Positions 4,088 to 48,199 of a stretch of DNA of 48,199 nt are shown in pieces (the stretch's first letter is position 1; each line of letters starts with the position of its first letter). A program made the position numbers and the translations under genes. The notes beneath the pieces were generated by a model. The model saw only the letters and a program-made list of their open reading frames with translations. It did no database searches and had not been told where the DNA came from. Source of the DNA: Limisphaerales bacterium (GTDB lineage: Bacteria; Verrucomicrobiota; Verrucomicrobiia; Limisphaerales; SIBE01); the NCBI GenBank assembly GCA_044225505.1, contig JBGAIN010000053.1, positions 1-48,199 on the forward strand, in the 5' to 3' direction.

Positions 4088-5368
4088 ATGGCAACAGTTT
4101 CACGGGGGCTCCCACAGAAGCCCCATCTCGATGTTCCCAAACGCGAAGCGCGAGCACTTCTAAAAGCTTGGCAATCGAGGCTACCCGACGCGCTCGACCG
4201 AATTCGCAAGCGACATCCGAGATTCCGTCATGGGGATGACGCCGCGATCAGGGCGGGGAAATTCCTTCTGAATGACGCCCAGCTTGTCGTCGCACGCGAG
4301 TATGGGTTTTCCACGTGGACAGAGTTGAAGGAGCGGATCAACGCGAACACGGTCGCAGGGCTTTTGCAGGAGGCGATGCGCAACAATGATGTCGAGACCG
4401 TCGTGAGGCATTTGAAGGCGAATCCCAGCCTGCTGCACATTCCGTTACGGAGCGGCAATTGGGGACCGCCCATGAGCCATGCGGCGAACCTCGGGAGGCT
4501 CGAGATCATCCAAGCAGTGTCAGCGCTCGGAGCCCAAGATCACCAGCATGCCTTCGATCGAGCCGTACTCCAGGGCAAGCTGGAATGTGCACGTTGGCTT
4601 CACGCGAACGGCGCGAAATTGTCACCAGGCATCGTGATGGGAGCGTGTGAAACGTTGAATCCGGCCGGGCTCGGTTTCTTAGCTGACTTGGGGGCGCCGT
4701 TCACCGATGCCAAAGGAAATCGACTTGCACCACTCGCATTGGCCTTGGAGACGTATGGGCGGAATCCCATGGGGAAGCATGCCGTGCTCGAGATTTTCGC
4801 ACGGCAGGGCTATGTGTGGCCGGACACACCGATCATGGCGTTTCATCGCGGTGACCTAAAGCGGCTCAAAGAGTTTCTCCAGGATGATCCGGACCTGACT
4901 CGGCGGCGGTTTAGGACGGTGGAGATTTATCCGCCCGAATTGGGTTGCGCCAAGGACGGCCGATCGGGAATGCACTGGACGCCCATTGACGGAACCACCC
5001 TGCTGCACCTGGCGATCGATTTCGATGAAGTTGAGATTTTCGAATCTCTCTTGGAGCACGGCGCGGACGTCAACGCGGCGGCGAATGTGGACGCGGCAGG
5101 CTTCGGCGGGCACACGCCGATCTACAACGCCGTGGTCAGCCATGGGAGAAGCCAGGGATCGATGGCGCAAACGCTGCTGGAGCGAGGCGCATCGACAACC
5201 GTACGAGCATCGTTGCGAAAGTTCCTCGATTGGTGTGAAACGCCCAGTTGGCACGAAGTGCGGAATGTGACACCGGCGGAATGGGCGCAAACCTTTCCAG
5301 ACCAAGGGTGGGTAAACTCAGAAGCCCTGCGACTGGTTGAATCCAAGGGCGGCGCGAGGTCGAGTTGA
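4088..5368 (+). CDS. Ankyrin-repeat protein with N-terminal AQLVVAREYGFxxWxxLK domain
   Basis: GTTLLHLAIDFD..LLEHGADVNA and GHTPIYNAV ankyrin motifs; GAGGAAGTAAGG RBS before ATG 4088. Confidence 0.9.
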   Translation: MATVSRGLPQKPHLDVPKREARALLKAWQSRLPDALDRIRKRHPRFRHGDDAAIRAGKFLLNDAQLVVAREYGFSTWTELKERINANTVAGLLQEAMRNNDVETVVRHLKANPSLLHIPLRSGNWGPPMSHAANLGRLEIIQAVSALGAQDHQHAFDRAVLQGKLECARWLHANGAKLSPGIVMGACETLNPAGLGFLADLGAPFTDAKGNRLAPLALALETYGRNPMGKHAVLEIFARQGYVWPDTPIMAFHRGDLKRLKEFLQDDPDLTRRRFRTVEIYPPELGCAKDGRSGMHWTPIDGTTLLHLAIDFDEVEIFESLLEHGADVNAAANVDAAGFGGHTPIYNAVVSHGRSQGSMAQTLLERGASTTVRASLRKFLDWCETPSWHEVRNVTPAEWAQTFPDQGWVNSEALRLVESKGGARSS

Positions 5369-5557
5369 CAGGCCTGGGTAGCAGGCAGCCGCGCGGCTTG
5401 ATTATTCGTCGCTCTGAGACAATAATTCCATGCTGCGCGGTCTGCCGGTGGCTGCGCCATCGCTAGACGCCCGACTGGTCAGGTGGCAATTGAGCCTAAG
5501 ACAGTTCCCAAAGCCACTTGATGAGATCTGGACTGCCACGCCACGAAAGGATTTTGT

Positions 5558-8377
5558 ATGGTCAAAAACTGTACTCGATCGTTTAACCTGGCCCCGACAA
5601 GCCAAGACGGGAGTTGGAAGATTTTCGCATCCCGCTGGAGGAGTATCAGCCTTGGCCTCGCGCTGGCGTCGGTTCCAGTGGGCGGAGAGGTAGTCATCAA
5701 CGAGATCTTCTACCACCCTCCCAATGACCTGGAGGATCTTCAGTTCATCGAGGTTCACAACGCCGCAACGAACCCTGTCGATCTGAGCGGTTGGAGCTTG
5801 GCAGGAGGGATCGAATCAAACTTTGCGGTGGGCAGTTCGCTCGCTGGCCAGGGGTATTTCGTACTCGCGGCTAATCCCGAACGATTTCAAGAGTATTACG
5901 GGTTCTCGCCCGCTGGCACATTTCGCGGGACATTAAGCCGGAAAGGCACGCGAATCAGCCTCTTGAACGCGCAGGGCCAGCGGATTGATGATGTCTCTTA
6001 CCAGGACTCGCCTCCTTGGCCAGCCGGTGCGGATGGCTACTCGGCTTCCTTGGAGCGGATCTGTCCTTCTGCAGATGGCAACCTATCGCAAAACTGGGCG
6101 GCTTCTCCTTTGCCGAGAGGGGAAATCAAACCGGCAGGGACTCCCGGGCAGAAGAACGCAAATTTCGCCGCATCTCTTCCTCCGCTCATTTCCGATGTCA
6201 GATTTTCACCCGCCAGTCCCAGACCCGGGGAGGAGGTCACCGTGGAGGCGCAGGTGGACGACGCTAGAGGCGCTCGCGAAGTGACCCTTCGATACCGCCT
6301 TGCCGCCCCGGGCGGCCAACCCGCAGAACTCACCTTACCCATGACCAAACTGGACCGACAGCGTTGGACGGGGAAGATCCCTGGCCAACAAGCGGGGCAA
6401 CTCGTTCGATTCCGGATTCAGGCTGTGAATCAACAGGGAGCGGAGCGATACCACCCAGGCGCAAACGAGCCGCAACCCGCGTTTTCATACTTTGTTGCGG
6501 ACAAACCCGAGGGTGCACGGATTCCACTCGCGTTCATTCTCAACACCGATCAGAACGACCAGCGATCTATCGAGCAGCATCTACAGGCGACCAGTGGAAC
6601 TTCTGACGGGCAGCAACTGCGCCTGTATGCACAAATGCAGATGGAAGCGGCGCTGCAACTGAGCCCACTCTGGTTTGAGCTGGCGGTGGTGCAACAATCT
6701 TCATTCGAGCAGATGTCCAAACTCCGGCCGGTATTCGTGGCCAACGCAGCCGAAAGGGATCGACTGATCGCCGAGCCGGTGAAGGCGAGTGACTATAAAG
6801 AGGCGCGGGAAAAAATCGGGCAAATCGCCGACGCCTTCCACCAAGGGGTCGCCAGCGCCGTGAAGCCGCTGCTGAACGACGCGCAATATGCCAAGGCAAC
6901 CGAGCTCTTGCCGCAAAAGAAAGCCTCGCGTGGACCGCAGCCGATCACCCCAGACGCGTTGCTCCGGCGCTTTCTCAAGCTGGAAGACACGTTCTTTAAG
7001 TTAACGATTCAGTTCGAATTGACCCAACCGGTGTTCCAACAGATCGCCGAAATTCACCGCGCGGGTGTGTCTCGCCGGGCCGAGGTGACACCGGTCGTCC
7101 AGGCCCTCACCCAGGGACAAGGTGAACTCGCCGACGTGCATGACAAACTCGACGCCATCCGGACTTCGGTGGGCAAGCAGGTGGAGAGCCTCCTGACCCG
7201 GGAACAGAGAATCCAGTGGAAACGTTGGCTCAGAGAGAGCGAGTCGGCCATGGCCGGAAAAGTCCGGACGCCACCGCCCAAGCGACCCCAGGGAAGTTCT
7301 GCCTTCGTCTATATCCCCCCGGAGACTGGCGCGCCCGAAGTCTACGACTTCATCACGGTGACGGAACGGAATTCGGGGCTCAACGTGCATTTCCTGGACG
7401 CCCAACACTTTCACGAGATGAGCACGATCAATCTGTTCTACGAGGTCAACGATCGTTTTGTCCTGGCGGAACCTTTGGCGTATGAGTTGTACCGCCGGGT
7501 GGGAGTTCCCGCCCCAACGGCCAACCATCTCCGGCTGACCGTAGACGGCCGGCCATTAGGGCTTTATTTGGCTGTTGAGCAGCCGAACCGAGCGTTCCTC
7601 AGGCGCCATCGCCGCGATGCCCGAGGGAATCTCTACAAAATTCTTTGGTATGGCCGGAGCGTAGAAGGGCAGCACGAGAAGAAGACCCATCGGAAACAAG
7701 GACACGAAGACTTGATTGAACTGCTGAGCAGGCTCGAGCAGTCGCGCCACGATCCGGATGCGCAATGGTCGCTCATCGAGAAACACTTTCACGTTCCCCA
7801 AGTCATCGACTACTTCGCGGTGAATATGTGCCTCTCTCATTGGGATGGGTTCTTCAACAACTATTTCGCCTATCACGACGCTCGCGGAACGGGCCGGTGG
7901 GAAATGTACCCCTGGGACCAGGACAAGACCTGGGGATTCCACGACGGTCTCAAGCCAGGCCAGGTATTCTACGACATGCCCGTCACTTTTGGGATGGAAG
8001 GAGATCGTCCACCGGGGTATCCAAAGGACCGACCCGCTCCACGGGGCTTTGCCGGCGACACTGCTTGGTGGAGACCAGGCGGCCCTTTCTCCAAACCGCT
8101 GCTGGCAAACCCACACTTCCGCAAGCAGTTCCTAGGGCGAACCAAGGAGATCCTACAGACCGTCTATTCCGAAGAGGCGTTTTTTCCAGCGATCGATACG
8201 CTGGGCACCCTTTTGGCTGAGGAAGTCCGCTGGCGCGCGAGGATTCTGAACCAGGACCCCGATCAGGCGGGCGCAATGCTGCAGGATAATCTTAAATCCC
8301 TGAAAGAGCACCTGACCCGGCGCCGACAGTTCCTCCTCGAACAGGAAGAGATACGTTCCGCCTCACGGGACGGTTAG
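5558..8377 (+). CDS. Lamin-tail domain / CotH kinase family secreted protein
   Basis: VVINEIFYHP...FIEVHN...VDLSGWSL (LTD); C-terminal LAYELYRRVGVPAP, HWDGFFNNY, WEMYPWDQDKTWG (CotH-like). Confidence 0.88.
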   Translation: MVKNCTRSFNLAPTSQDGSWKIFASRWRSISLGLALASVPVGGEVVINEIFYHPPNDLEDLQFIEVHNAATNPVDLSGWSLAGGIESNFAVGSSLAGQGYFVLAANPERFQEYYGFSPAGTFRGTLSRKGTRISLLNAQGQRIDDVSYQDSPPWPAGADGYSASLERICPSADGNLSQNWAASPLPRGEIKPAGTPGQKNANFAASLPPLISDVRFSPASPRPGEEVTVEAQVDDARGAREVTLRYRLAAPGGQPAELTLPMTKLDRQRWTGKIPGQQAGQLVRFRIQAVNQQGAERYHPGANEPQPAFSYFVADKPEGARIPLAFILNTDQNDQRSIEQHLQATSGTSDGQQLRLYAQMQMEAALQLSPLWFELAVVQQSSFEQMSKLRPVFVANAAERDRLIAEPVKASDYKEAREKIGQIADAFHQGVASAVKPLLNDAQYAKATELLPQKKASRGPQPITPDALLRRFLKLEDTFFKLTIQFELTQPVFQQIAEIHRAGVSRRAEVTPVVQALTQGQGELADVHDKLDAIRTSVGKQVESLLTREQRIQWKRWLRESESAMAGKVRTPPPKRPQGSSAFVYIPPETGAPEVYDFITVTERNSGLNVHFLDAQHFHEMSTINLFYEVNDRFVLAEPLAYELYRRVGVPAPTANHLRLTVDGRPLGLYLAVEQPNRAFLRRHRRDARGNLYKILWYGRSVEGQHEKKTHRKQGHEDLIELLSRLEQSRHDPDAQWSLIEKHFHVPQVIDYFAVNMCLSHWDGFFNNYFAYHDARGTGRWEMYPWDQDKTWGFHDGLKPGQVFYDMPVTFGMEGDRPPGYPKDRPAPRGFAGDTAWWRPGGPFSKPLLANPHFRKQFLGRTKEILQTVYSEEAFFPAIDTLGTLLAEEVRWRARILNQDPDQAGAMLQDNLKSLKEHLTRRRQFLLEQEEIRSASRDG

Positions 8378-8422
8378 CGAGAACGCTCCGCGCCCTGTCG
8401 GAGGCCATGATCGGCGGACTCT

Positions 8423-9646
8423 CTACCGCAAAGGCAGAGCCAGGCAGACCAGATTGCCGGCAGCGTTCCGCAGGTAGAGGCGTCCATTGGCCAGGGCGGG
8501 AGTCGACCAACATCGCCCACCGAGAACCTGGATTTGAGCGATGGTTTGGTAGGCGGTGGGAGTCGCCGCGACGACGTGGAGCACCCCATTCTCCGCCAAC
8601 GCCAGCAAATGGCCGTCCGCCAGCAGAAGCGTCCCTAAACCAAGAATCGGCGAGGCCCATTTCTCTTCGCCTGAATTCCAGTCCAGGCATTTGAGTTGCC
8701 GATCATCGAAACCGTAGAGATAGCCGTTGGCAAGCACGCAGCTTCCAAAGTAGGTCCGCATGGCCTGGTTTCGCCAGAGCTGCTTCGGTTCCGGACCCGC
8801 CATGTCAAACAAGGCGCAGCCAACGCCATGACCGCTGCAAACAAAGAGCTTCCCTTCCGAAAAGAGAACGTCGGAAGCGTTCTGATCCCAGGTTGTCTTC
8901 CATGGAATTCTCCAGAGGACCTCTCCATGCGCCACGGCGGCCGCCACAACTTCGTGACCGCTGACAAATGCGAATAGGTTGGTGCCGTGAACGTTGAAAA
9001 CCGAGGGAGTCGAGTACCCGGAATGCCCGGGGCCATTGCTCCAAAGCGTCTCTCCAGTAAGTTTGTTGACAGCCAACCCCGCTGGGCCGACGGGGATGAG
9101 CAGCCGGTCTTCGGCGACCACAATCGAGCCAGCGAAGCCCCACCAGACGTGATAGTCGTCTTTCGTCAGGGTCGGATTTGCGAACTGTCGCGACCAGAGC
9201 ACTTTCCCGCTCTCGGCGCTCAGGCAGAAGCAATGTCCGAATTTACTGAGGCTGTAGACCCGTTCCCCGTCCACGGTGGGCGTAGACAAAGGACCACCCT
9301 CAAAGCTCTTCGGATCGAGAGGACTGGCATAGGAATGTCGCCACAGTTCCCGGCCTGTTTCCGCGTGCAAGCAGTAAAGAGTGTCGACGTCCTCCCGATT
9401 CCCAAGCGCATAGAGACGCCCGCCAGCAATGACGGGAGAAGAAAAGCCTTTGCCAACATTGCTCTTCCAGGCCACAACTGGATTCTTGGCTGCCAGTACC
9501 CAATCAAATCCCGCTTCGACCGAAATGCCATCACGATTCGGCCCACGCCATTGAGTCCAATCCGCTGCGTAGCTGCCCCGGGGTGAGGTCAGGATAGGAA
9601 TCACCAACCCCATGAGACAGCCGATCGCCCAACCATACGTCTTCAT
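8423..9646 (-). CDS. PQQ-binding-like beta-propeller repeat protein
   Basis: Signal peptide then ADWTQWRGPNRDG; repeated G-x-x-x-W and STP motifs; ends WSTPALANGRLYLR. Confidence 0.92.
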   Translation of the reverse strand: MKTYGWAIGCLMGLVIPILTSPRGSYAADWTQWRGPNRDGISVEAGFDWVLAAKNPVVAWKSNVGKGFSSPVIAGGRLYALGNREDVDTLYCLHAETGRELWRHSYASPLDPKSFEGGPLSTPTVDGERVYSLSKFGHCFCLSAESGKVLWSRQFANPTLTKDDYHVWWGFAGSIVVAEDRLLIPVGPAGLAVNKLTGETLWSNGPGHSGYSTPSVFNVHGTNLFAFVSGHEVVAAAVAHGEVLWRIPWKTTWDQNASDVLFSEGKLFVCSGHGVGCALFDMAGPEPKQLWRNQAMRTYFGSCVLANGYLYGFDDRQLKCLDWNSGEEKWASPILGLGTLLLADGHLLALAENGVLHVVAATPTAYQTIAQIQVLGGRCWSTPALANGRLYLRNAAGNLVCLALPLR

Positions 9647-9743: not shown

Positions 9744-11004
9744 CAGGGCAGACGCATCTAAAATATTTCAGGAGAGTGCTGACAGCCGCTAAGGCACTAG
9801 GCAAATTTTGCCTTGTACCAGGGACTTATGTATAAATAGAAGAGGATGCAAAAGCATCCTACTCTAAGTTTGGTGGAACAATTCAAAGAGATGCCCGGTC
9901 CGCGTCGATCGCACCAAGGATCATTCGCTGGTCGATATTCTGGTGATCGCCGTCTGCACGTTGCTCTGCGCGGGAGAAACCCTTCAATGACATGGAGGAT
10001 TTCGGAAAAGCCAAAGAGGACTGGTTCAGAACGTTTCTGACGCTGGCCAACGGCATCATCTCACGATATTCAACCGCGTCTTTGCGGCACTGAATCCCAA
10101 AGAGTTTCTGGAGTGTTTCCTGCGCTGGACGCAGAGCCTACGGCAGGCCGTGCATCAAGAGATTGTCGCCTTGGACGGCAAAGCCTTGCGGCGGGCGATG
10201 AATAAAGAATCTCAAGTATGTGGTCAGCGCCTGGGCTGAAAGCAATAACCTGGTGCTAGGAGCATTGAAGGTGGTCGATAAGAGCAATGAAATCACGGCG
10301 GTGCCTGAATTGCTGCGCGCGTGCTCGAACTCAGCGGCTGTATCGTCACCCTTGATGCGATGGGCTGCCAAAAGAAAATCGCCAAGGAAATCATCGAAGC
10401 CGACGCCGATTACGTGCTGGCCCTCAAAGGCAACCAGGAAACGGTGCATGAGGAAGTCAAAGCTTTCTGGATGCGACGATCCTGGAGGCGCAAGCCCCGC
10501 GGCCAACCGCCGCTCCTGTGCCCAAAGCCGCCGCCACTTTGGCCACGTTCAAACGGTAGAGAAAGATCATGGCCGCATTGAAATCCGAGACTATTACCAA
10601 AGTGATCAGTTGGCTTGGTTTGCCGATCTGGACAAGTGGGAGGGACTCAAGTCGGTCGGCGTGGTCGAGAATTCACCCGCGAAATGGATGGAGTCAAAAC
10701 GGTGGAGCGCCGCTACTACTTGGCCAGTTTATCTCTGAATGTGGAATTGTTCGCGCGAGCCGTGCGCGGCCACTGGGGCGTGGAAAACAAACTTCATTGG
10801 GTGATGGACGTCTGTTTTCACGAAGACCAAAGCTAATTACGCGCGGTCACGCCGCCGAAAATCTTGCCACAATGCGGCGACTTGCACTGAACATGCTCAA
10901 AAGGAGACCACCAAAAAGCGAGGCATCAAAGGAAAACAGCTCAACGCCAGCTGGGACCATGCCTATTTGCTCCGACTATTGGGCGTTTAGATGCGTTTCC
11001 CCTG
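9744..11004 (+). mobile_element. ISAs1-family insertion sequence with a frameshifted transposase
   Basis: IRs CAGGGCAGACGCATCTAAA / TTTAGATGCGTTTCCCCTG (17/19); perfect 10-bp target duplication AGGATATCCG (9734-9743, 11005-11014). Confidence 0.95.
9846..10990 (+). pseudogene. ISAs1 transposase pseudogene (multiple frameshifts)
   Basis: Motifs split across frames: [70 protein letters not shown]. Confidence 0.92.
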
Positions 11005-11082
11005 AGGATATCCGACATTGCGGTTGACTTTTACCATCGACTGAAAGGATACCACAGTTCCCCAGGCATAGGATTGAATCAC

Positions 11083-12492
11083 CTAGTCAGCGGCTGGTAT
11101 CCGTCTCCGCGAGTTCCGGTCCCCTAGCGGCACCAGAGCGCAAACGGTAGTTCCTTTGCCGGGCGCCGAACGGAGGGTGCAATGGCCTCCGACCATCTGG
11201 ACCCGCTCCCGCATGCCCAGGACTCCCAACCGGGTCCGCTTCTTCCCAGTCAGCACGTGATCCACGTCAAATCCATGCCCATCGTCGGTAACGCTCAGTC
11301 GAATTGAACCCTTCACTTTCTCCAAAGCCACATGGACGCGCCGGGCACCGGCGTGTCGGACGATATTGGCGAATGACTCCAGCGCGACGCGATACAAAAC
11401 TGTGCTTGTAGCGCTATCCAGCTCGGTAATCCGTGCCGACCGTGAGGAGGTGAAACGAATGCGGATGCCAGTTCGCTTGGTAAAGTCCTGCATGAAGGAT
11501 TGAAGCGCAGGCATTAGCCCCAGATCATCGAGGACCGTTGGGCGCAATTCGCGGGCGAACTGATGCACTGCTGCCACCGACTTTTCGACCAGGCGCTGCG
11601 TTCGTGCGATCTCCTGCTTGAGTTCTGTCGGATTCACTGTTTTCTTTTGGCTCAAAGCGACCAGATTGACATTGATTCCCACCAACGTTTGGGCGACGTG
11701 ATCGTGCAAATCGCGACTGATGCGCTTCCGTTCTTCTTCCTGCGCCTGGAGAAGTTGATGGGACAAATGGCGTAACTGCTCTTGCATAGTGCGCGATTCC
11801 TCTAATAACTGGACTTGATGTTCCTGGTTTTTCTTGAGCGCCGTTTGCACCTGCCGCCGCCGACCAATTTCCCGTTCCAACCTCTCACTGGCCAGGGCGA
11901 GAATGCTCATTCGGTGCTGAGCTGCTTCGGCCCGCTTGAGCGCCGAGAGGTCCGAGACGGCCAGACGACACCATTTCGGCGCGCCGGGCGGGACGACCGC
12001 GGAGATCGCTTGAATGTCGACCCAGCAGGCTGCTCCCGCATGGTTGACGAGTGAGACTTCACAGATCTGTTTTGCAGGCCCTCCGAGTGCCTTTTTCAGA
12101 AAGGCCGTAAAGGCTGGGCGGCTCGAGGGCACGACAAATGCGTGCAACCGCTGGTTGACCAAACGAGCGCGCCCCACGCCGAGCATCGCTGCCGCGGTTA
12201 AGTTTGCTTCCAGGATGCGCCCATGTTCATTGACAGAGAAATAACCAACCGGGGCGAAATCATAGAGGTCCGTATATTTTTCCAACGACGCCTCCATTTG
12301 ATTCCGCGCGGCTTGCAGCTCCTCGTTCTGCATCTCCAGTTCTACTTGGTAGACCTGAAACTCGTGGAGGAATCGTTGCGGATCGACCTTACTCCCTGAC
12401 AACGCCGCATCTGTGGGATGCATCTTCAGGCGAGCTTCGGCATCCCGCCGAAGGCCAACCGCGTCCATTGAGGTCTTTAGTGTTTTTTTCAT
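11083..12492 (-). CDS. PAS-domain sensor histidine kinase (HisKA_3, NarX/UhpB type)
   Basis: YTDLYDFAPVGY PAS; QEEERKRISRDLHDHVAQ H-box; DDGHGFD, GVLGMRER, SAPGKGT ATPase motifs. Confidence 0.93.
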   Translation of the reverse strand: MKKTLKTSMDAVGLRRDAEARLKMHPTDAALSGSKVDPQRFLHEFQVYQVELEMQNEELQAARNQMEASLEKYTDLYDFAPVGYFSVNEHGRILEANLTAAAMLGVGRARLVNQRLHAFVVPSSRPAFTAFLKKALGGPAKQICEVSLVNHAGAACWVDIQAISAVVPPGAPKWCRLAVSDLSALKRAEAAQHRMSILALASERLEREIGRRRQVQTALKKNQEHQVQLLEESRTMQEQLRHLSHQLLQAQEEERKRISRDLHDHVAQTLVGINVNLVALSQKKTVNPTELKQEIARTQRLVEKSVAAVHQFARELRPTVLDDLGLMPALQSFMQDFTKRTGIRIRFTSSRSARITELDSATSTVLYRVALESFANIVRHAGARRVHVALEKVKGSIRLSVTDDGHGFDVDHVLTGKKRTRLGVLGMRERVQMVGGHCTLRSAPGKGTTVCALVPLGDRNSRRRIPAAD

Positions 12493-38619: not shown

Positions 38620-38742
38620 ACCTAACGAAGATATGCGACCGCCACCGCGAGTAAAGCGGGAGTGTGACTGGCGTGACCGAGTTCTCGGTTCGCGGAAAAC
38701 AGAGTGAGGCAGCGGTGGTTCGTCGTCATCGATTTGTTAAAC
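38620..38742 (-). other. attC site
   Basis: Minus strand GTTTAAC-aaatc-GATGACGACGAACCACCGC...GCGGTGGCGGTCGCATATCTTC-GTTAGGT; canonical RYYYAAC/GTTRRRY ends, 4 bp after a stop codon and 17 bp before the next ATG. Confidence 0.85.
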
Positions 38743-39392: not shown

Positions 39393-39515
39393 GGCTAACA
39401 CCCAACTAAGCGACAGCCGCTGAGAGCACAAGCCTGATCGCGGAGCGCGCGTCCAATTCCCCGCCCGCCCGGGACCCGAGACGCGTTGCGGAAGTTCGAC
39501 TCCAGTGCGTTCGAC
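39393..39515 (-). other. attC site
   Basis: Minus strand GTCGAAC-GCACTGGAGTCGAACTTCCGC...GCGGCTGTCGCTTAGTTGGGT-GTTAGCC, followed 1 bp later by ATG. Confidence 0.75.
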
Positions 39516-40370: not shown

Positions 40371-40467
40371 GCCGAACGACGGAACTGAGCGGCGCGGGCG
40401 GTCCATGGCTCCCGAATTGCCAACCGACGTGGCCCACCCACATTCGCTCCAGTGACCTGGCTTGGCT
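40371..40467 (-). other. attC site
   Basis: Minus strand TGA-AGCCAAGCCAGGTCACTGGAGCGAATG...CCGCTCAGTTCCGTC-GTTCGGC-ATG; fills the whole intergenic space. Confidence 0.8.
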
Positions 40468-41103: not shown

Positions 41104-41263
41104 TCTGAGCGCCTGACCGTTTCTGACCCTTGGGGCCGGACGCTTCGCCCCGTCGGAACTGAGCCCCACCCTCGAAGCAATTCAGCATTCTGTCATGCAA
41201 AGCTGCGAGCCCCATGCTCGCGACCCAAATATGCGCTTCTGCGGGACTGCCCCTGCCCCTGCC

Positions 41264-41350
41264 TTGGGCGCACCAGATTTCGAAACTTCGTTCCCTCTCG
41301 CTGGCTCAGCTCCGATCTGCCCCCAATGCGGCCGGGAGATGAATATGGTC
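41264..41350 (+). pseudogene. Relic of the IS91-family transposase C-terminus
   Basis: LGAPDFETSFPLAGSAPICPQCGREMNMV vs LGAPDVLASFPLAGSAPLCPRCGSEMKLV (47546-47632): 21/29 identical, ungapped. Confidence 0.85.
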
Positions 41351-42152: not shown

Positions 42153-43969
42153 CCTAAGTTCCCGAACATTTTGAGAGAAACATCAACTTTGTTGGGGTTT
42201 TGGCAAATAGTGTAGCAAGTAATATGTTTATACTGCCTGCAATTGTCTTTGACCATGCTGGATGCATTGTCTACTCTGTAGCCCGTGTTCGTCCAAGCCA
42301 CGACTTCATCGCGCAAGAACGGCAAAACCTATGTCTCTTACCTAGTCCGGGAGTCCTTCCGCACCCCGGATGGCCCTCGCTCCCGCACGATCTGCAACAT
42401 CACCGATCTGCCCCCCGCCACGCGCGATCTGATCATCGGCTCTCTCAAAGGGCAGGATTTCCTGCCTGCGGAGCAGGTTCAGTTGCATGAGGCTCTGGAT
42501 TATGGCGGCTTGGCCGTTCTGAACGACGCTTGGTCGCGGTTCCGGTTGGACGAACTGTTCACCGGCATTGGCTCTCCTCGCCAACGAGGCTTGCTCCGGT
42601 CTGTGATCTATAGCCGTCTGCTCTTTCCCTGCGCCAAACTGTCTGTGGCGCGAAAGCCGCGGGCACCTGGTTAGCTCCAGCTTGCGGCTGAAAAGCCGAT
42701 GAATCCTTCGACGAAGACGATATCTACGCCGCCATGGACCAGCTCAATGGCCATTGGGTCCATTTGGAGAAAGCGCTTTATCAACGGGCCTTTCCCCAAG
42801 CGGTGCGTCTGGTCCTCTACGATCTGACCAGCGTCTATTTCGAAGGCGCTGGGCCGGAGCACCTGGCTCAATACGGCCATAGCCGAGATCACCGCAGGGA
42901 TCGGCCGCAAATCATCCTGGCGGTGGCGACGGACACCGAGGGCCTGCCTTTGCATGTGTCAGTTTTGCGCGGCAACCGCAATGATACGCAGACGCCCAAG
43001 GATTATTGCACACGTTGCGTCGGCGTTTTGGAATCCAGGAAGCTACTTTCGTGTTTGATGGCGGGATGAGCAGCCAGATCAATCTGGAGGCGATGGACGC
43101 AGCGGGGCTGGGGTGCGTGACTCGGCTTTCGGCAGTTACCTTGCACAGCCTGGTGGAGGAACTGGGCTTGGAAAAGCAGCTCGAATTGGGCGACCGCCAA
43201 AAGCTCATGGAGATCACCCACGAGGGCAAACGCTACGTGGTGGCCGGTGGCCAATGGCGTCAGCAACGGGATCGCGAGCGCCGCCAAAGCAGGATCGACA
43301 AAGCCGAAACGGAGTTAAGACGCTTGGCGGTGGTTAAGCGCCAGAAAGTGGACGGGCAAAAACTGGCCAGCCAGGTGGGACGGACTCTGCAACGACTCAA
43401 GGCGCACAAATATTTTAGCTACAGCGTCGATGGGCAAGGAAGTTGATCTGGGAGCGCAAGGGAATTGATCGCCCAAGAGGCCCAGCAAGACGGTTGGTAA
43501 GCTGCTGCACACCAACCAAACGGCGCAGCAATGTCCCACCGAGCAGGTCTTGGGTCACTATAAGGGACTCCTGGATGTGGAAGAGGCTTTCTGCGAACTC
43601 AAGAGTTACCTGGAAGTCCGGCCTATTTTCACCGGCGCCCCGACCGGGTGATCAATCATGTGCGCCTCTGTTTTCTGGCCTATTGGCTGAGCGCGCGTTT
43701 AGGAGGAGAATGGCGCGCCAAAGGCGAAACGGCGGAAGTTCCCCGAGTGCTCCGCCACCTGCAGACCATTCGCTTGGGCCGACTGCAAATGGGCTCCAAG
43801 GTCCACCAGACCATCCTCACCCAAGTGCCCACCGATCTGAACGAGCAACTCCGGAAACTCGGCTTGGCTTCCTTGTTCGCCTCGCCGCCAAAACAGTCAT
43901 TGTAGCCCGATCAAATCGAGAAACCCTCGGTTTTGTTGGGCTTTTTATCCCACTGAGGAGGAAGTCAGG
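42153..43969 (+). mobile_element. IS1634-family insertion sequence, decayed
   Basis: Ends CCTAAGTTCC / GGAAGTCAGG; (G)CTAA duplicated on both sides; exact boundary uncertain by 1 bp. Confidence 0.85.
42285..43905 (+). pseudogene. IS1634 transposase pseudogene (several frameshifts)
   Basis: KNGKTYVSYLVRESFR, LVLYDLTSVYFEG, YGHSRDHRRDRPQI, FVFDGGM, HVRLCFLAYWL in different frames. Confidence 0.9.
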
Positions 43970-44056
43970 CTAATACGACGCACAAACAACCAGCAGCCCT
44001 CGGTTGCGGCTGAGCCGCGCTGAGTCTTGGTGCCTCCGTGAGAGCCATTCTGCTTC

Positions 44057-44730: not shown

Positions 44731-44856
44731 CGCTAACAGAGAACTGAGCGACTGGTGCTGAAAAGGCAAGCGACAGCGTGAATGGCTCCTGCAAATCGAC
44801 TGCACGCGTGGAGCGCATCGGTGCGGCGCCAGTTCGTCTCCTGTGTCTGGTTCGGC
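44731..44856 (-). other. attC site
   Basis: Minus strand GCCGAAC-cagac-ACAGGAGACGAACTGGCGC...GCACCAGTCGCTCAGTTCTCT-GTTAGCG; 4 bp after the DUF4259 stop. Confidence 0.85.
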
Positions 44857-44860
44857 CCTT

Positions 44861-45268
44861 TCATCTCAGTCTCCCCTGCAAATCGGTTAGGTGATTTTTC
44901 CACTTCCCGAACTCCTCACTCTCGCCCCAACGCTCCAAAAGCTCCGAAGGCTTCGTCAGTATCCGCGCAATGGCGCGAATGGCTGAATCAAGCAGTTCGT
45001 TGCCTGGCGTGAGTGGATGGTTCGTGACCCATCTATCTAGTGACTCGGTGTAGGCGTTCCGCACGTAGAACCTGCCACGGAGGCGCGCAAGTGCATCCGC
45101 GGCAGCTATCGCCTCTTCTGCGTCCGAAGCTGCGAGGTAACTGATCCCAGCCGCATGGACCTTTTCGATGGTCTCGGCAATGAAGGACAAGTCGTCACTC
45201 TGCTCTAGGTCGTAGTTCCAGTCGCAGGCCGTATCGTTTCCGAATGGGTCACAATCCCAGGCACCCAT
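44861..45268 (-). CDS. DUF4259 domain protein, cassette
   Basis: MGAWDCDPFGNDTACDW...AIAAA...SELLERW...W...L.DLQGRL. Confidence 0.88.
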   Translation of the reverse strand: MGAWDCDPFGNDTACDWNYDLEQSDDLSFIAETIEKVHAAGISYLAASDAEEAIAAADALARLRGRFYVRNAYTESLDRWVTNHPLTPGNELLDSAIRAIARILTKPSELLERWGESEEFGKWKNHLTDLQGRLR

Positions 45269-45285: not shown

Positions 45286-45410
45286 GCCGAACGGTAAGCC
45301 GAACAACTGCCGCTGGCAACGCCAGCTTGGCACTTCGCGGCGATTCCGAGTTTTCCGAAACTCTCTGAGCTGAGACGCGTGCGGCAGCTCGCTCCGGCGA
45401 TTGGTTGAAC
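45286..45410 (-). other. attC-like site formed by the left end of the recombinase-transposase element
   Basis: Minus strand GTTCAAC-caatc-GCCGGAGCGAGCTGCCGC...GCGGCAGTTGTTCGGCTTACC-GTTCGGC; no cassette ORF precedes it. Confidence 0.8.
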
Positions 45411-45498
45411 TAAGCCGCTCCGCGCGGCGATGATTCTCGATCACGTTCGCGTGGATCGGGCGCGGATTCACAAGGAGAGATTACTACTATACGGGTGC

Positions 45499-46554
45499 AT
45501 GAACAGCACCAATCCTTCCTCCACCGGAACTCCCAACCTCAACCCACAGCCGAGCGCCGACTCAAAACCTAAAGTCAGTGCGTGGGGACCCAAGTCGACC
45601 CTGCCTCCGGGCATCCGGACCACGGCCAAGGAGTATGCGAACCCTGTCGATTACAAGCATCCCTACGAATCGATGGCCAGCTTCGCAAGTTTTCTGGCCC
45701 TTCGCTACGACGCCAATCGCACTCGTCATTCCTACTATCGCCAACTTGGACTCATCCAAAAACACTTCGCTTGCGATCCCGCGGCCATCACCGAAGCCCA
45801 ACTGCGCGATTATTTCCTCATGGTCAAGCTACAGAAGCATTGGCGACCTAAGACCATCCGACAGGCCGTTGCCGCCGCGAAGATGTTCTTCGTCGAGTTA
45901 CTCAACCACAACGACTGGACCGTCTTTTCCCAGATCCGTTCCAAGGATCACGACACCCTTCCCACCGTCCTCACTCGCCAGCAGGTCCACGATCTCCTAG
46001 CCCACATTCGACTTCGCCGCTATCGCACTCCCCTCAAGCTCATCTATTGTTGTGGCCTGCGTTTAAGCGAGTGTCTGGGGCTGACCATCCACGACATCAA
46101 GGGCAAAGAAAACAAACTGTTCATTCGTCAGAGCAAAGGTCACAAAGATCGCGTCGTCCCCTTGCCCACACCGATGTATTTAGAACTGCGCCGTTACTGG
46201 TCTTTCCACCACCATCCCCTGTTAATCTTTCCCAACGTGGGACGCGGCGATCGCCATCCCGAAGGTCTGGCTAAGCGCATGCGTCAGGCCACACACCCGA
46301 TGCCCACCTGCTCCCTGCAGCGCCTTTTAATCGTTGCCCGCAAAGAGCTCAACATTCCGGGTGCCTCACCGCACACGTTACGACACAGTTTTGCCACGCA
46401 CCTTCTGGAAGCCGGCGCCCACCTTCGCACCATTCAAGAGTTGCTGGGCCATTCCCAGATCACCAGCACGATGGTCTACACGCACCTGACTCATCAGAGC
46501 GCTCAAGACACCTTGCGTCTGATGGACGAGCTTTGTCGAAGCCTGCCGCGCTAG
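45499..46554 (+). CDS. Tyrosine recombinase/integrase (IntI/XerD-related, no IntI-specific insertion)
   Basis: GLRLSE, KGHKDR, HTLRHSFATHLLE, IQELLGH, TMVYTH give the complete R-K-H-R-H-Y set; N-terminal SAM-like domain; start at ATG 45499 chosen over 45430. Confidence 0.95.
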   Translation: MNSTNPSSTGTPNLNPQPSADSKPKVSAWGPKSTLPPGIRTTAKEYANPVDYKHPYESMASFASFLALRYDANRTRHSYYRQLGLIQKHFACDPAAITEAQLRDYFLMVKLQKHWRPKTIRQAVAAAKMFFVELLNHNDWTVFSQIRSKDHDTLPTVLTRQQVHDLLAHIRLRRYRTPLKLIYCCGLRLSECLGLTIHDIKGKENKLFIRQSKGHKDRVVPLPTPMYLELRRYWSFHHHPLLIFPNVGRGDRHPEGLAKRMRQATHPMPTCSLQRLLIVARKELNIPGASPHTLRHSFATHLLEAGAHLRTIQELLGHSQITSTMVYTHLTHQSAQDTLRLMDELCRSLPR

Positions 46555-46576
46555 ACAGAGTTTCTCCACCCTCAGC

Positions 46577-47713
46577 ATGTCCGACCGCCCCACCGTTTTG
46601 GGGGCGCTGCGCCGTTTTCTACCTCAGTTCCTGAGCACAAAGCCTGCGCTTTCTCCTCAGCAACGTCGCGCCCTCCGGGCTATCACTCATTGCCGCACGG
46701 CGGCCTTGGGCGGCAACGCCTTTGCCTGCGACTGCGGCCAATGGCACTTTGCCTATCACTCCTGCAACCACAAAGCCTGTCCCCAACGCGGCGCGTTGAC
46801 CACGCGCCGCTGGGTTCAGCGCGAGTTACATAAACTTGTTAACGCACCTTACTTCCTGGTCACCTTCACTCTGCCCGCAGAGTTACGCGGCTGCTTTTTC
46901 GGCCCCGCTGCCAAGCAAGCCTATGACCTCTTTTTCACGGCCGTCTCGGGCGCTCTGGCCGAAAAACTCGCTGACGACAAACGCTTGCGAGCCCAGGTCA
47001 GCGGTTTCACCGCCGTCCTTCATACCTGGAATCAACGCCTGCAATTCCATCCTCATATTCACTGCTTAGTCCCAGGCGCCGGGCTCGATGCCCACGGCCA
47101 GTATGTCCAAGTCAAAAACCCGGAGTTCCTGGTCTATTTGCCGCACCTCCAGAGCGCTTTCCGCCAGCACATTTACCAACTGTTTAAAGAGCACGGTTGG
47201 CAGGTCGATCCGGCCGTCTGGGGCAAAGACTGGGGCGTGCATATTCAACCCGCCGGCTCCGGCGCTCCCGCTCTCAAATACCTGGGCACTTACGTCGCAC
47301 GCACGGCCATCACCGACGCGCGCCTTCTGACCGTCACCGATCAATCCGTCACCTTCCGCTGGAAGGATCGATCGGATGCCAATCGCATCAACACGAAGTC
47401 ACTCCCCGGCGTTGAATTCCTCAGCCGCTACTTGCGTCATGTGCTCCCCACGGGGTTACGCTCAGTTCGTTACTACGGCTTCTGCCATCCCACAGCCAAA
47501 GCCAAGCGTCTGCAAGTCCAACTCCACTCCGGAAAAACAGTCAACCTGGGCGCCCCGGATGTGCTCGCTTCGTTCCCTCTAGCTGGCTCGGCTCCGCTTT
47601 GCCCTCGATGTGGCTCGGAAATGAAATTAGTCGGCTCGGTTAGCCCTGGGCACAAGACGCGCGGACCACCGCTTCGCCCAACCTTGATCTCTCGCATCTC
47701 CACAGCCGCATGA
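46577..47713 (+). CDS. IS91-family (Y2 HUH, rolling-circle) transposase with zinc-binding domain
   Basis: CRTAALGG, YHSCNHKACP, LVTFTLP, VLHTWNQRLQFHPHIHCLVPG (HUH), YLGTY (YxxxY), EFLSRYLRHVLP, VRYYG, C-terminal CPRCG. Confidence 0.95.
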   Translation: MSDRPTVLGALRRFLPQFLSTKPALSPQQRRALRAITHCRTAALGGNAFACDCGQWHFAYHSCNHKACPQRGALTTRRWVQRELHKLVNAPYFLVTFTLPAELRGCFFGPAAKQAYDLFFTAVSGALAEKLADDKRLRAQVSGFTAVLHTWNQRLQFHPHIHCLVPGAGLDAHGQYVQVKNPEFLVYLPHLQSAFRQHIYQLFKEHGWQVDPAVWGKDWGVHIQPAGSGAPALKYLGTYVARTAITDARLLTVTDQSVTFRWKDRSDANRINTKSLPGVEFLSRYLRHVLPTGLRSVRYYGFCHPTAKAKRLQVQLHSGKTVNLGAPDVLASFPLAGSAPLCPRCGSEMKLVGSVSPGHKTRGPPLRPTLISRISTAA

Positions 47714-47998
47714 ACAGCGCGCGTTGCCAAATGGTCTCCTCACGCGCTCGCAGCCTTTTTGCCCTGGCGCAGTCCATTGGGATTCCATCTGCCCGCGGCC
47801 GATCTCGACACCACTTTCTGGCCACCTTCAGGTCCTTGAGCCCCTGCGCTAAAGCTCGCGCCTCTGCCCGCTTCTCCGTACCCATCCCTCCACGAGAGCT
47901 GAAAAAACGCATCCACCACCTCTTCCGGTTCTCTCGCCAAAAATACAACTGCCATTGTCGGCTCTGAGCCGACTGGTTTCATCAAAAACATCGGGCTT

Positions 47999-48073
47999 GT
48001 TCAACCAGGGGCGTATTTGCTGGCTCCGCTCGCAAAGCCTCGCTCCGCAGCAATACACCCTTCTGCGTTCGGC
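47999..48073 (+). other. attC-like site formed by the right end of the element (opposite orientation to the array)
   Basis: GTTCAAC-cag-GGGCGTATTTGCTG...CAGCAATACACCC-ttctgc-GTTCGGC; stem with one unpaired T and one mismatch. Confidence 0.75.
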
Positions 48074-48199
48074 ACACGAGTATTCATTCGAATGAACAAG
48101 CTACCGACGCGCTCGCTGATACGCGTGTCTGATTTTGTCCACTGAGGTGCCTCCCAGACACGGTTGCGGACCTTCATAACTGCCCGTCGAAGGTCATCC

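Follow-up and report, generated by a model that had tools for sequence, protein, structure and literature searches.

Sequence comparison places an integrase-bearing IS91-type element at the R'' box of an integron attC site, opposite to the cassette array

The integron integrase IntI cuts the attC site on its bottom strand, at the R' box. Hairpin-defined single-stranded sites are also used by CTX-type phages through XerCD and by elements of the IS200/IS605 kind, where a single strand is integrated in a strand-specific manner and replication completes the process. Within the IS91 family ISfinder groups together elements with an upstream gene of the phage-integrase type (ISShvi3 and others). In IS91 and ISCR elements the transposase gene has terIS on its upstream and oriIS on its downstream side (PMC13393415, PMC5737581); canonical IS91 has a 17-bp oriIS downstream of the coding sequence and needs it together with a CTTG/GTTC tetranucleotide (PMC5737581). 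Group IIC-attC introns lie opposite to the cassettes (PMC9229058). In the excerpts returned by our literature search, one printed remark places ISShvi3 beside an attC, and there is no description of attC targeting by IS91-type elements. Here we analyse a mobile unit of 2,663 bp (45405..48067, plus strand) in a 48,199-nucleotide stretch of DNA from a Limisphaerales bacterium (assembly GCA_044225505.1, contig JBGAIN010000053.1). This stretch, called the window below, is the whole of the contig that we label C122, in a genome of 9.0 Mb and 342 contigs. The unit belongs to the integrase-bearing subgroup of the IS91 family and is intact. As judged by comparison of copies, it interrupts a host attC at AA|C in the R'' box without duplicating the target, and its genes run counter to the array; the same holds for the second copy in this genome.

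From left to right the unit consists of a left end, a recombinase gene, a transposase gene, a non-coding tail and a hairpin of its own; it extends from G45404|T45405 to G48067|T48068. Similarity to the second copy, which lies on contig C201 and is 78.4% identical over 1,928 nt inside the element (77% for the recombinase and 78% for the transposase protein), begins on the left at GGTTGAAC, the DNA further left being unrelated, and ends on the right at the GTT of the right site. Divergence also sets in immediately past this GTT in two copies from one other genome (loci L034 and L036). Because the comparisons with C201 and with the relatives end at these points, the unit is 45405-48067, and the right hairpin is part of it and the left one is not.

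For the recognition of attC sites we used covariance models, as energy-threshold attC scanners missed most real sites and could not separate the strands. Since a MAFFT alignment of eight mixed attCs (A3) was too poor for modelling, a first home-made model (R1) was built from five sites of one attC type; it is type-specific, and its search of the genome gave at least 21 matches at E <= 1 (150 of 1,830 candidates scored). The second home-made model (R2), built from 36 matches and trained on the attCs of this genome, separates the strands.

With these models, the hairpin to the left of the unit (minus strand, with GTTCAAC at 45410..45404 and GTTCGGC at 45292..45286) scores 116.7 bits on the minus strand with R1, and 65 bits on the minus against 19.3 bits on the plus strand with R2. 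It is of the same attC type as C60:70643-70768, the first attC beside the intI gene of this genome, and as sites on contigs C132, C156 and C273, and its sequence differs in every copy of the element. It is an ordinary host attC of the array that includes the DUF4259 cassette. Because the intI-anchored array on C60 gives the polarity, the top strand of the left site is the minus strand of the window. Every attC-like match made in this stretch of the window lies on its minus strand (45286-45410, 44731-44856, 40371-40466, 39393-39515 and 38620-38742), as do the genes between them, which include the DUF4259 gene and one for a SUKH-1 protein; this agrees with the earlier view that a minus-strand cassette array starts at the left site.

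The exact insertion point follows from re-joining the flanks. The host attC (45286..45404, minus strand) has been parted from its own R'' box by the insertion; its cassette gene lies to the right of 48073, and the host DNA right of the element (48068..48199, minus strand) holds what is left of the split R'' box together with the end of this upstream cassette, and the contig ends there. Joining 45404 to 48068 restores an R'' box, GCCGAAC, that is complementary to the R' box of the same site, GTTCGGC, at seven of seven positions. In the C201 copy, which interrupts the attC of a GNAT cassette, re-joining restores ACCTAAC, complementary to the R' box GTTAGGC at six of seven positions. The target is not duplicated, as GATTGG| and |TTCGGC on either side of the unit have no repeat in common and yield a single attC when re-joined.

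The same placement recurs in relatives. An R2 match adjoins the left end, on the strand opposite to the element, at six of eight left ends with E <= 0.01 (the window, C201, L033, L035, L036 and L037, of which L036 and L037 may be one insertion); the left ends of L032 and L034 gave no R2 score and appear hairpin-like by eye. No insertion into an R' box (at G|TT on the top strand) that follows the orientation of the array was found in the two copies of this genome or in these scored relatives. In the copy on a Salinivibrio replicon, all neighbouring genes are on the other strand. The array does not turn round at the element, because attC-like sites keep one strand across it: in C201 they lie on either side of the unit on one strand, and beyond the unit in L032 and L034 they are on the same strand, opposite to the element. 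A scan of metagenome contigs with the 15-mer of the left end gave 80 loci, which we divided into 41 element ends and 39 chance occurrences by the presence of the small GC hairpin or a recombinase match downstream, a basis on which a few of the element ends may still be chance. Of the element left ends, 37 have 130 nt of flank or more; in 12 of these, an R2 match (E <= 0.01) ends exactly at the GTTGAAC box, 11 times on the strand opposite to the element and once on the same strand (L152), compared with none of 37 chance loci with flank. At L152 (409-534) the adjoining match is better on the strand of the element (23.2 vs 11.1 bits), and at L149 (316-407) a match of 17.2 bits is oriented likewise; these two elements may have been inserted forward at an R' box, or their strands may be miscalled.

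Both inverted ends, both genes and both hairpins lie where the initial annotation, made from the letters of the window, had placed them, and its description of a self-contained unit of recombinase and HUH transposase tied to attC sites stands. The left inverted end TGGTTGAACTAAGCC (45402..45416, plus strand) holds the GTTGAAC box (45404-45410) and leads into a small GC hairpin, GCCGC..GCGGC (45414-45428). It is kept as GTTGAAC[T/A/G]AAGCCGC in C201, in L032-L037 and in the Salinivibrio copy (L110), and a related form, TGAACGAAGCCGC, is found in a clade of Acidobacteria. The right inverted end GGCTTGTTCAACCA (47994-48007, plus strand) is an inverted copy of TGGTTGAACTAAGCC with one indel, so that the inverted ends measure 14-15 bp; joined or brought together, the two element ends complete a 7-bp GTTCAAC/GTTGAAC box, extended by GGCTT/TAAGCC. 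A conserved non-coding motif, AAATACAACTGCCAT (47941..47955, plus strand), located 228 nt past the stop codon of the transposase gene, is kept as AAATACAA[C/G]TGCCAT in C201 and L034-L037 and in variant form in L032 and L033, and is a candidate oriIS-like site. The structured, unlike ends of IS91-type elements are present, with the small GC hairpin on the left and the long hairpin and conserved motif on the right.

Both open reading frames are intact. The tyrosine recombinase (45499..46554, plus strand) comprises 351 amino acids from the ATG at 45499, a start conserved with the C201 copy, in an open reading frame of 45430-46554, and matches the Pfam families Phage_integrase (PF00589, 4e-32) and SAM_4 (PF13495). 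In NCBIfam it matches TIGR02249 best, with 165.8 bits, short of the cut-off of 265, and in two stretches that skip model positions 178-230; it also lies under the Xer cut-offs (XerD 149.1 vs 329.6, XerC 141.9 vs 335.15, XerA 147.4, below cut-off). In our alignment A6 the catalytic residues R, K, H-x-x-R, H and Y do not vary, and an IntI-specific segment, 28 residues long in the IntI of this genome, is absent from the four element recombinases aligned. The protein is an Xer/IntI-like recombinase but not an IntI, in line with the earlier description of an IntI-like protein without the IntI insertion. The transposase (46577..47713, plus strand; 378 amino acids) is an HUH/Y2 rolling-circle transposase of the IS91 family, exceeding the cut-off of the IS91 equivalog NF033538 (304.6 vs 125 bits) and matching Y2_Tnp (PF04986, 1.3e-42) and Zn_Tnp_IS91 (PF14319, 3.1e-22), and its translation shows FHPHIHC and YLGTY.

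The right inverted end and the attC-like hairpin together span 47994..48073 (plus strand), with an R''-like box GTTCAAC at 47999-48005, arms at 48008-48022 and 48048-48060 and the GTT at 48067-48069. The letters TTCGGC (48068-48073), which complete the GTTCGGC of the right site (48067-48073), are host DNA. Between the window and C201 the arms are identical at 39 of 40 and 23 of 23 positions, and the loop differs in length and sequence. Seven loci of other genomes, with transposases 65-76% identical to the present one, keep the right end, and those that reach the left boundary keep the left end. On this comparative evidence the right hairpin (47999-48067) belongs to the element. The earlier claim that both hairpins are ends of the element consequently stands for the right one, which is kept in the copies, and falls for the left, a host attC that varies from copy to copy.

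The outline of the right hairpin is that of an attC: GTTCAAC, a short spacer, an imperfect stem of 13-14 bp whose 5' arm has one additional base, a loop that varies, and GTT. With the filters of R2 switched off it scores 13.2 bits on the plus and 4.2 bits on the minus strand, in an alignment that covers little beyond the boxes; the C201 and L036 hairpins score 13.1 and 20.7 bits on the plus strand, with no minus-strand match. By R2 the two hairpins face outward, the left on the minus and the right on the plus strand, as had been described, but the score on the right is far under those of the host attCs (38-65 bits for the two adjoining sites and 43-47 bits for three further along the array), and R1 gave no match at the hairpin of the element at E <= 1 (150 of 1,830 candidates scored). 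On the minus strand the predicted optimum is the expected hairpin (-12.5 kcal/mol), and on the plus strand a different fold (-9.4 kcal/mol); the hairpin of an acidobacterial relative (L043) gives -29.6 kcal/mol on the minus vs -26.0 kcal/mol on the plus strand. In three further lineages, namely Salinivibrio, the acidobacterial clade and a Caballeronia plasmid copy (the last by eye), the conserved right inverted end is followed by a hairpin of quite different sequence, and folding of the acidobacterial hairpins gives z-scores of -4.25 and -5.33, with none of 200 shuffles as stable. We regard this recurrence across lineages as the stronger argument for the attC-like nature of the right hairpin, above scores and folding energies.

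The family probably moves itself. This is supported by the many copies, by the retention of the gene pair and by the absence of an IntI over the cut-off from four genomes: 78 of 80 loci of relatives, across phyla, have a recombinase gene immediately ahead of the transposase gene; acidobacterial relatives (31-37% identical) form units of 2.5 kb in 7 to 9 near-identical copies per genome; and none of the four multi-copy acidobacterial genomes searched with TIGR02249 has a match over the cut-off (best 126.5 bits), the common two-piece matches in such genomes including the elements' own recombinases. The initial proposal of IntI-independent mobility is plausible on this ground for the family. The acidobacterial units have the same gene pair, ends of the same kind and a right-end hairpin, and their insertion sites share a short consensus without likeness to attC, ..GCCGAC|WT... 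At the acidobacterial loci L043-L109 (ends near 2936 and 5438) the insertion is often within a small imperfect palindrome, GATTACT...AGTAATC. An R2 search of 72 distant loci found no attC-like site, and plasmid-borne recombinase-transposase pairs in Sinorhizobium and Caballeronia sit among ordinary genes. Verrucomicrobial metagenome-assembled genomes and the Salinivibrio replicon also carry the ends and the right hairpin. Among the kin of the host the distribution is patchy, a close transposase being present in two of 40 relatives and in none of 12 of the same family.

Public sequencing runs were examined as Logan contigs. In run X15 a contig joins a C201-type right end to a left end (window 48063 -> 45403), a junction that is absent from the assembly of the genome itself. 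No empty site, that is, a contig bridging 45404 to 48068, was listed among the Logan run contigs. In run X15 the depth of the C201-type hairpin is about double that of the body. Runs X1, X2 and X15 hold a hairpin of the right type (window 47993-48069) flanked on both sides by other DNA; this arrangement is absent from this genome and presumably stems from a further relative in the same communities.

Overall, the explanation that we favour, with moderate confidence, is a self-moving IS91-type element that targets the R'' box of attC sites and is a parasite of the cassette array. In this explanation the element would move itself without IntI. The HUH transposase would nick the right end, and rolling-circle replication would free the strand antisense to the genes, because displacement would start from an oriIS downstream of the transposase gene. 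On the antisense strand the hairpin folds slightly better and both junctions read ...AA|C. This strand would be joined, at that AA|C, into an attC that is folded or single-stranded, on its top strand. The element would in this way use the strand and the box that IntI leaves unused, and the fixed backward orientation would follow, because integration of a single strand into the top strand of attC would be strand-specific. The joints could be made by the Xer/IntI-like recombinase on the folded hairpin, by analogy with XerCD on the single-stranded DNA of CTX phage and IntI on attC, or the Y2 transposase alone may make them, as happens in canonical IS91, where the target, GTTC, has this same core; we see the balance as about even, with a slight lean towards the recombinase.

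A wider version of the favoured explanation, in which the integrase-bearing IS91 subgroup would be a distinct class of hairpin-homing elements, is possible and we offer it tentatively. The HUH transposase would make a single-stranded circle, and the element's own recombinase would join the folded attC-like site of the circle to a folded host hairpin, namely the top strand of integron attCs in one clade and other small palindromes elsewhere. If true, there would be an IntI-independent route that reads the attC strand unused by integrons, and each insertion would turn one attC-like site into two.

Several observations weigh against the favoured explanation. Every mechanistic step in it is inferred, and the junctions, with G|TT and complementary boxes, match the outcome of IntI-type recombination equally well. 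In the metagenome, 25 of the 37 left ends are without an adjoining match and L152 is on the same strand; because R2 was trained on the attCs of one genome, the 25 are not shown to be targets other than attC. The polarity of the right hairpin as an attC rests on weak R2 scores (13.2 vs 4.2, 13.1 and 20.7 bits), and its bulges near the R box, read by eye, could be argued in the opposite sense. The window hairpins fold no better than shuffled sequences (z of +0.92 on the plus and -0.13 on the minus strand for the right, -0.73 and -0.18 for the left), and covariation in the close clade is thin, with a compensatory change in one of 16 pairs. At the acidobacterial junction the A/T varies on both sides among 99.9% identical copies, which is not expected from a simple single-strand cut-and-join. 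This genome and the Verrucomicrobial relative G004 both have an IntI. Finally, the depth of the X15 junction (7.2) is near the depth of the chromosome and flanks, which makes a head-to-tail tandem as likely as a circle.

The alternative that survives best is plain IS91 rolling-circle transposition, in which the Y2 transposase would cut a GAA|C-like sequence at both ends and in the target, and the recombinase would serve another purpose, for instance the resolution of multimers or circles, or regulation. We consider it rather unlikely, though it accounts for a good deal: the transposase has its catalytic motifs and qualifies as a full IS91 equivalog, target duplication is absent, the X15 head-to-tail junction would fit rolling-circle concatemers, and GAA|C complements the GTTC of the canonical requirement. 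Of six right flanks read, the tetranucleotide is GTTC in two (the window and L036), GTTA in C201, L032 and L110 and GTTG in L034. Against this alternative, a tetranucleotide by itself cannot explain why insertion is confined to R'' in one orientation when R' offers the same GTT on the other strand, and the opposite strand was found at 11 of 12 scored metagenome ends and at all six scored genome ends. Nor does the alternative account for the retention of the recombinase beside the transposase in nearly all relatives across phyla, or for a two-arm hairpin that resembles a recombinase site.

An improbable alternative is that the unit is an ordinary integron cassette, with the right hairpin as its attC, which host IntI moved and which was trapped after a rare insertion into the top strand. 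Boundaries at G|TT would be those of a cassette, whose circular form would have perfectly complementary R'' and R' boxes; the hairpin is a weak plus-strand attC by score; an intI is at hand both here and in G004; and backward insertions, being hard to excise, could accumulate. Against this, all scored insertions but one are backward, at R'' and not R', and relatives multiply in genomes without IntI, away from attC-like sites. The hairpin arms are moreover nearly invariant between copies that are 78% identical, unlike host attCs, and the hairpin scores 13 bits vs 38-65 bits for the latter.

Very improbable is the platform proposed in the initial annotation, whose two outward attC ends would capture cassettes and seed arrays in both directions without IntI: the outward hairpins and the IntI-like C-terminus of the recombinase speak for it, but the left hairpin is host DNA that differs in each copy, every copy has the same two genes in 2.5-2.7 kb with no passenger, the attC-like sites keep one strand across C201 and likewise beyond L032 and L034, and a classical intI exists. 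A two-hairpin element, a cassette with an insertion sequence inside and a turning point of the array were rejected on the grounds given for these alternatives.

That intI lies at C60:69303-70238 and reaches 267.6 bits with TIGR02249 (cut-off 265); the cassettes and attCs to its right are on the other strand. Plus-strand attC-like sites by R2 flank this minus-strand intI on both sides and thus extend beyond the usual one (locus L020, C60:60000-72350; 4910-8888 and 10644-11856). A second intI on C311 (23515-24440) is broken, with stop codons and two pieces of 176.7 and 68.8 bits; an attC-like site (C311:26244-26369) lies near it. In the window, the first cassette left of the insertion consists of a DUF4259 gene (44861..45268, minus strand; PF14078, 8.4e-31) and its attC (44731-44856, minus strand; 38 bits with R1, 61.8 bits with R2). 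To the right of the insertion, in DNA of the upstream cassette, there is a perfect 14-nt palindrome, TTCATTCGAATGAA (48083-48096). Further along the array, a fragment at 41204-41350 resembles transposase residues 303-352 (48% over 50 amino acids), and its DNA at 41265-41343 is a 77% match to 47547-47625; it is probably the remnant of another IS91-type copy within the same array. Overlapping broken plus-strand open reading frames at 42200-44000, without a Pfam match at 1e-3, interrupt the minus-strand array and resemble a frameshifted DDE transposase by eye. An Rfam search of the whole window at gathering thresholds gave no match.

If the favoured explanation is right, the integrase gene carried throughout an IS91 subgroup, so far unexplained, would acquire a function. 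Integrons would then have a further, third class of attC-specific parasite beside IS1111-attC elements and group IIC-attC introns, and the structure of attC would be read, on the opposite strand, by a second and IntI-independent set of enzymes. For annotation, such units are not to be called cassettes, and their hairpins are not to be counted as attCs of the array.

Among described systems, the closest is the integrase-bearing IS91 subgroup itself, with which the element shares an equivalog transposase (zinc finger, HUH, Y2), a recombinase directly upstream, the absence of target duplication and structured, unlike ends. Canonical IS91 differs in having one gene and a 4-nt target, whereas here the target is one base of a structured site of about 60-130 nt, used in one orientation, and the element's own end looks like the target site. 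The IS1111-attC group and the group IIC-attC introns are also small mobile elements in attC with a fixed orientation, but they work with unrelated enzymes, the former with a DEDD transposase and the latter with a ribozyme plus reverse transcriptase. Integron cassettes and the IntI x attC reaction share with the element the folded imperfect hairpin with R and L boxes, the G|TT (AA|C) crossover and a single exact junction without duplication; the element differs in its insertion at R'' opposite to the array, a recombinase without the IntI insertion, mobility genes of its own and relatives in genomes without integrons. CTX-type phages with XerCD and IS200/IS605 elements resemble it by analogy only, in their single-stranded hairpin-defined sites; they rely on host Xer or on a Y1 HUH enzyme, whereas the present element encodes a pair of enzymes.

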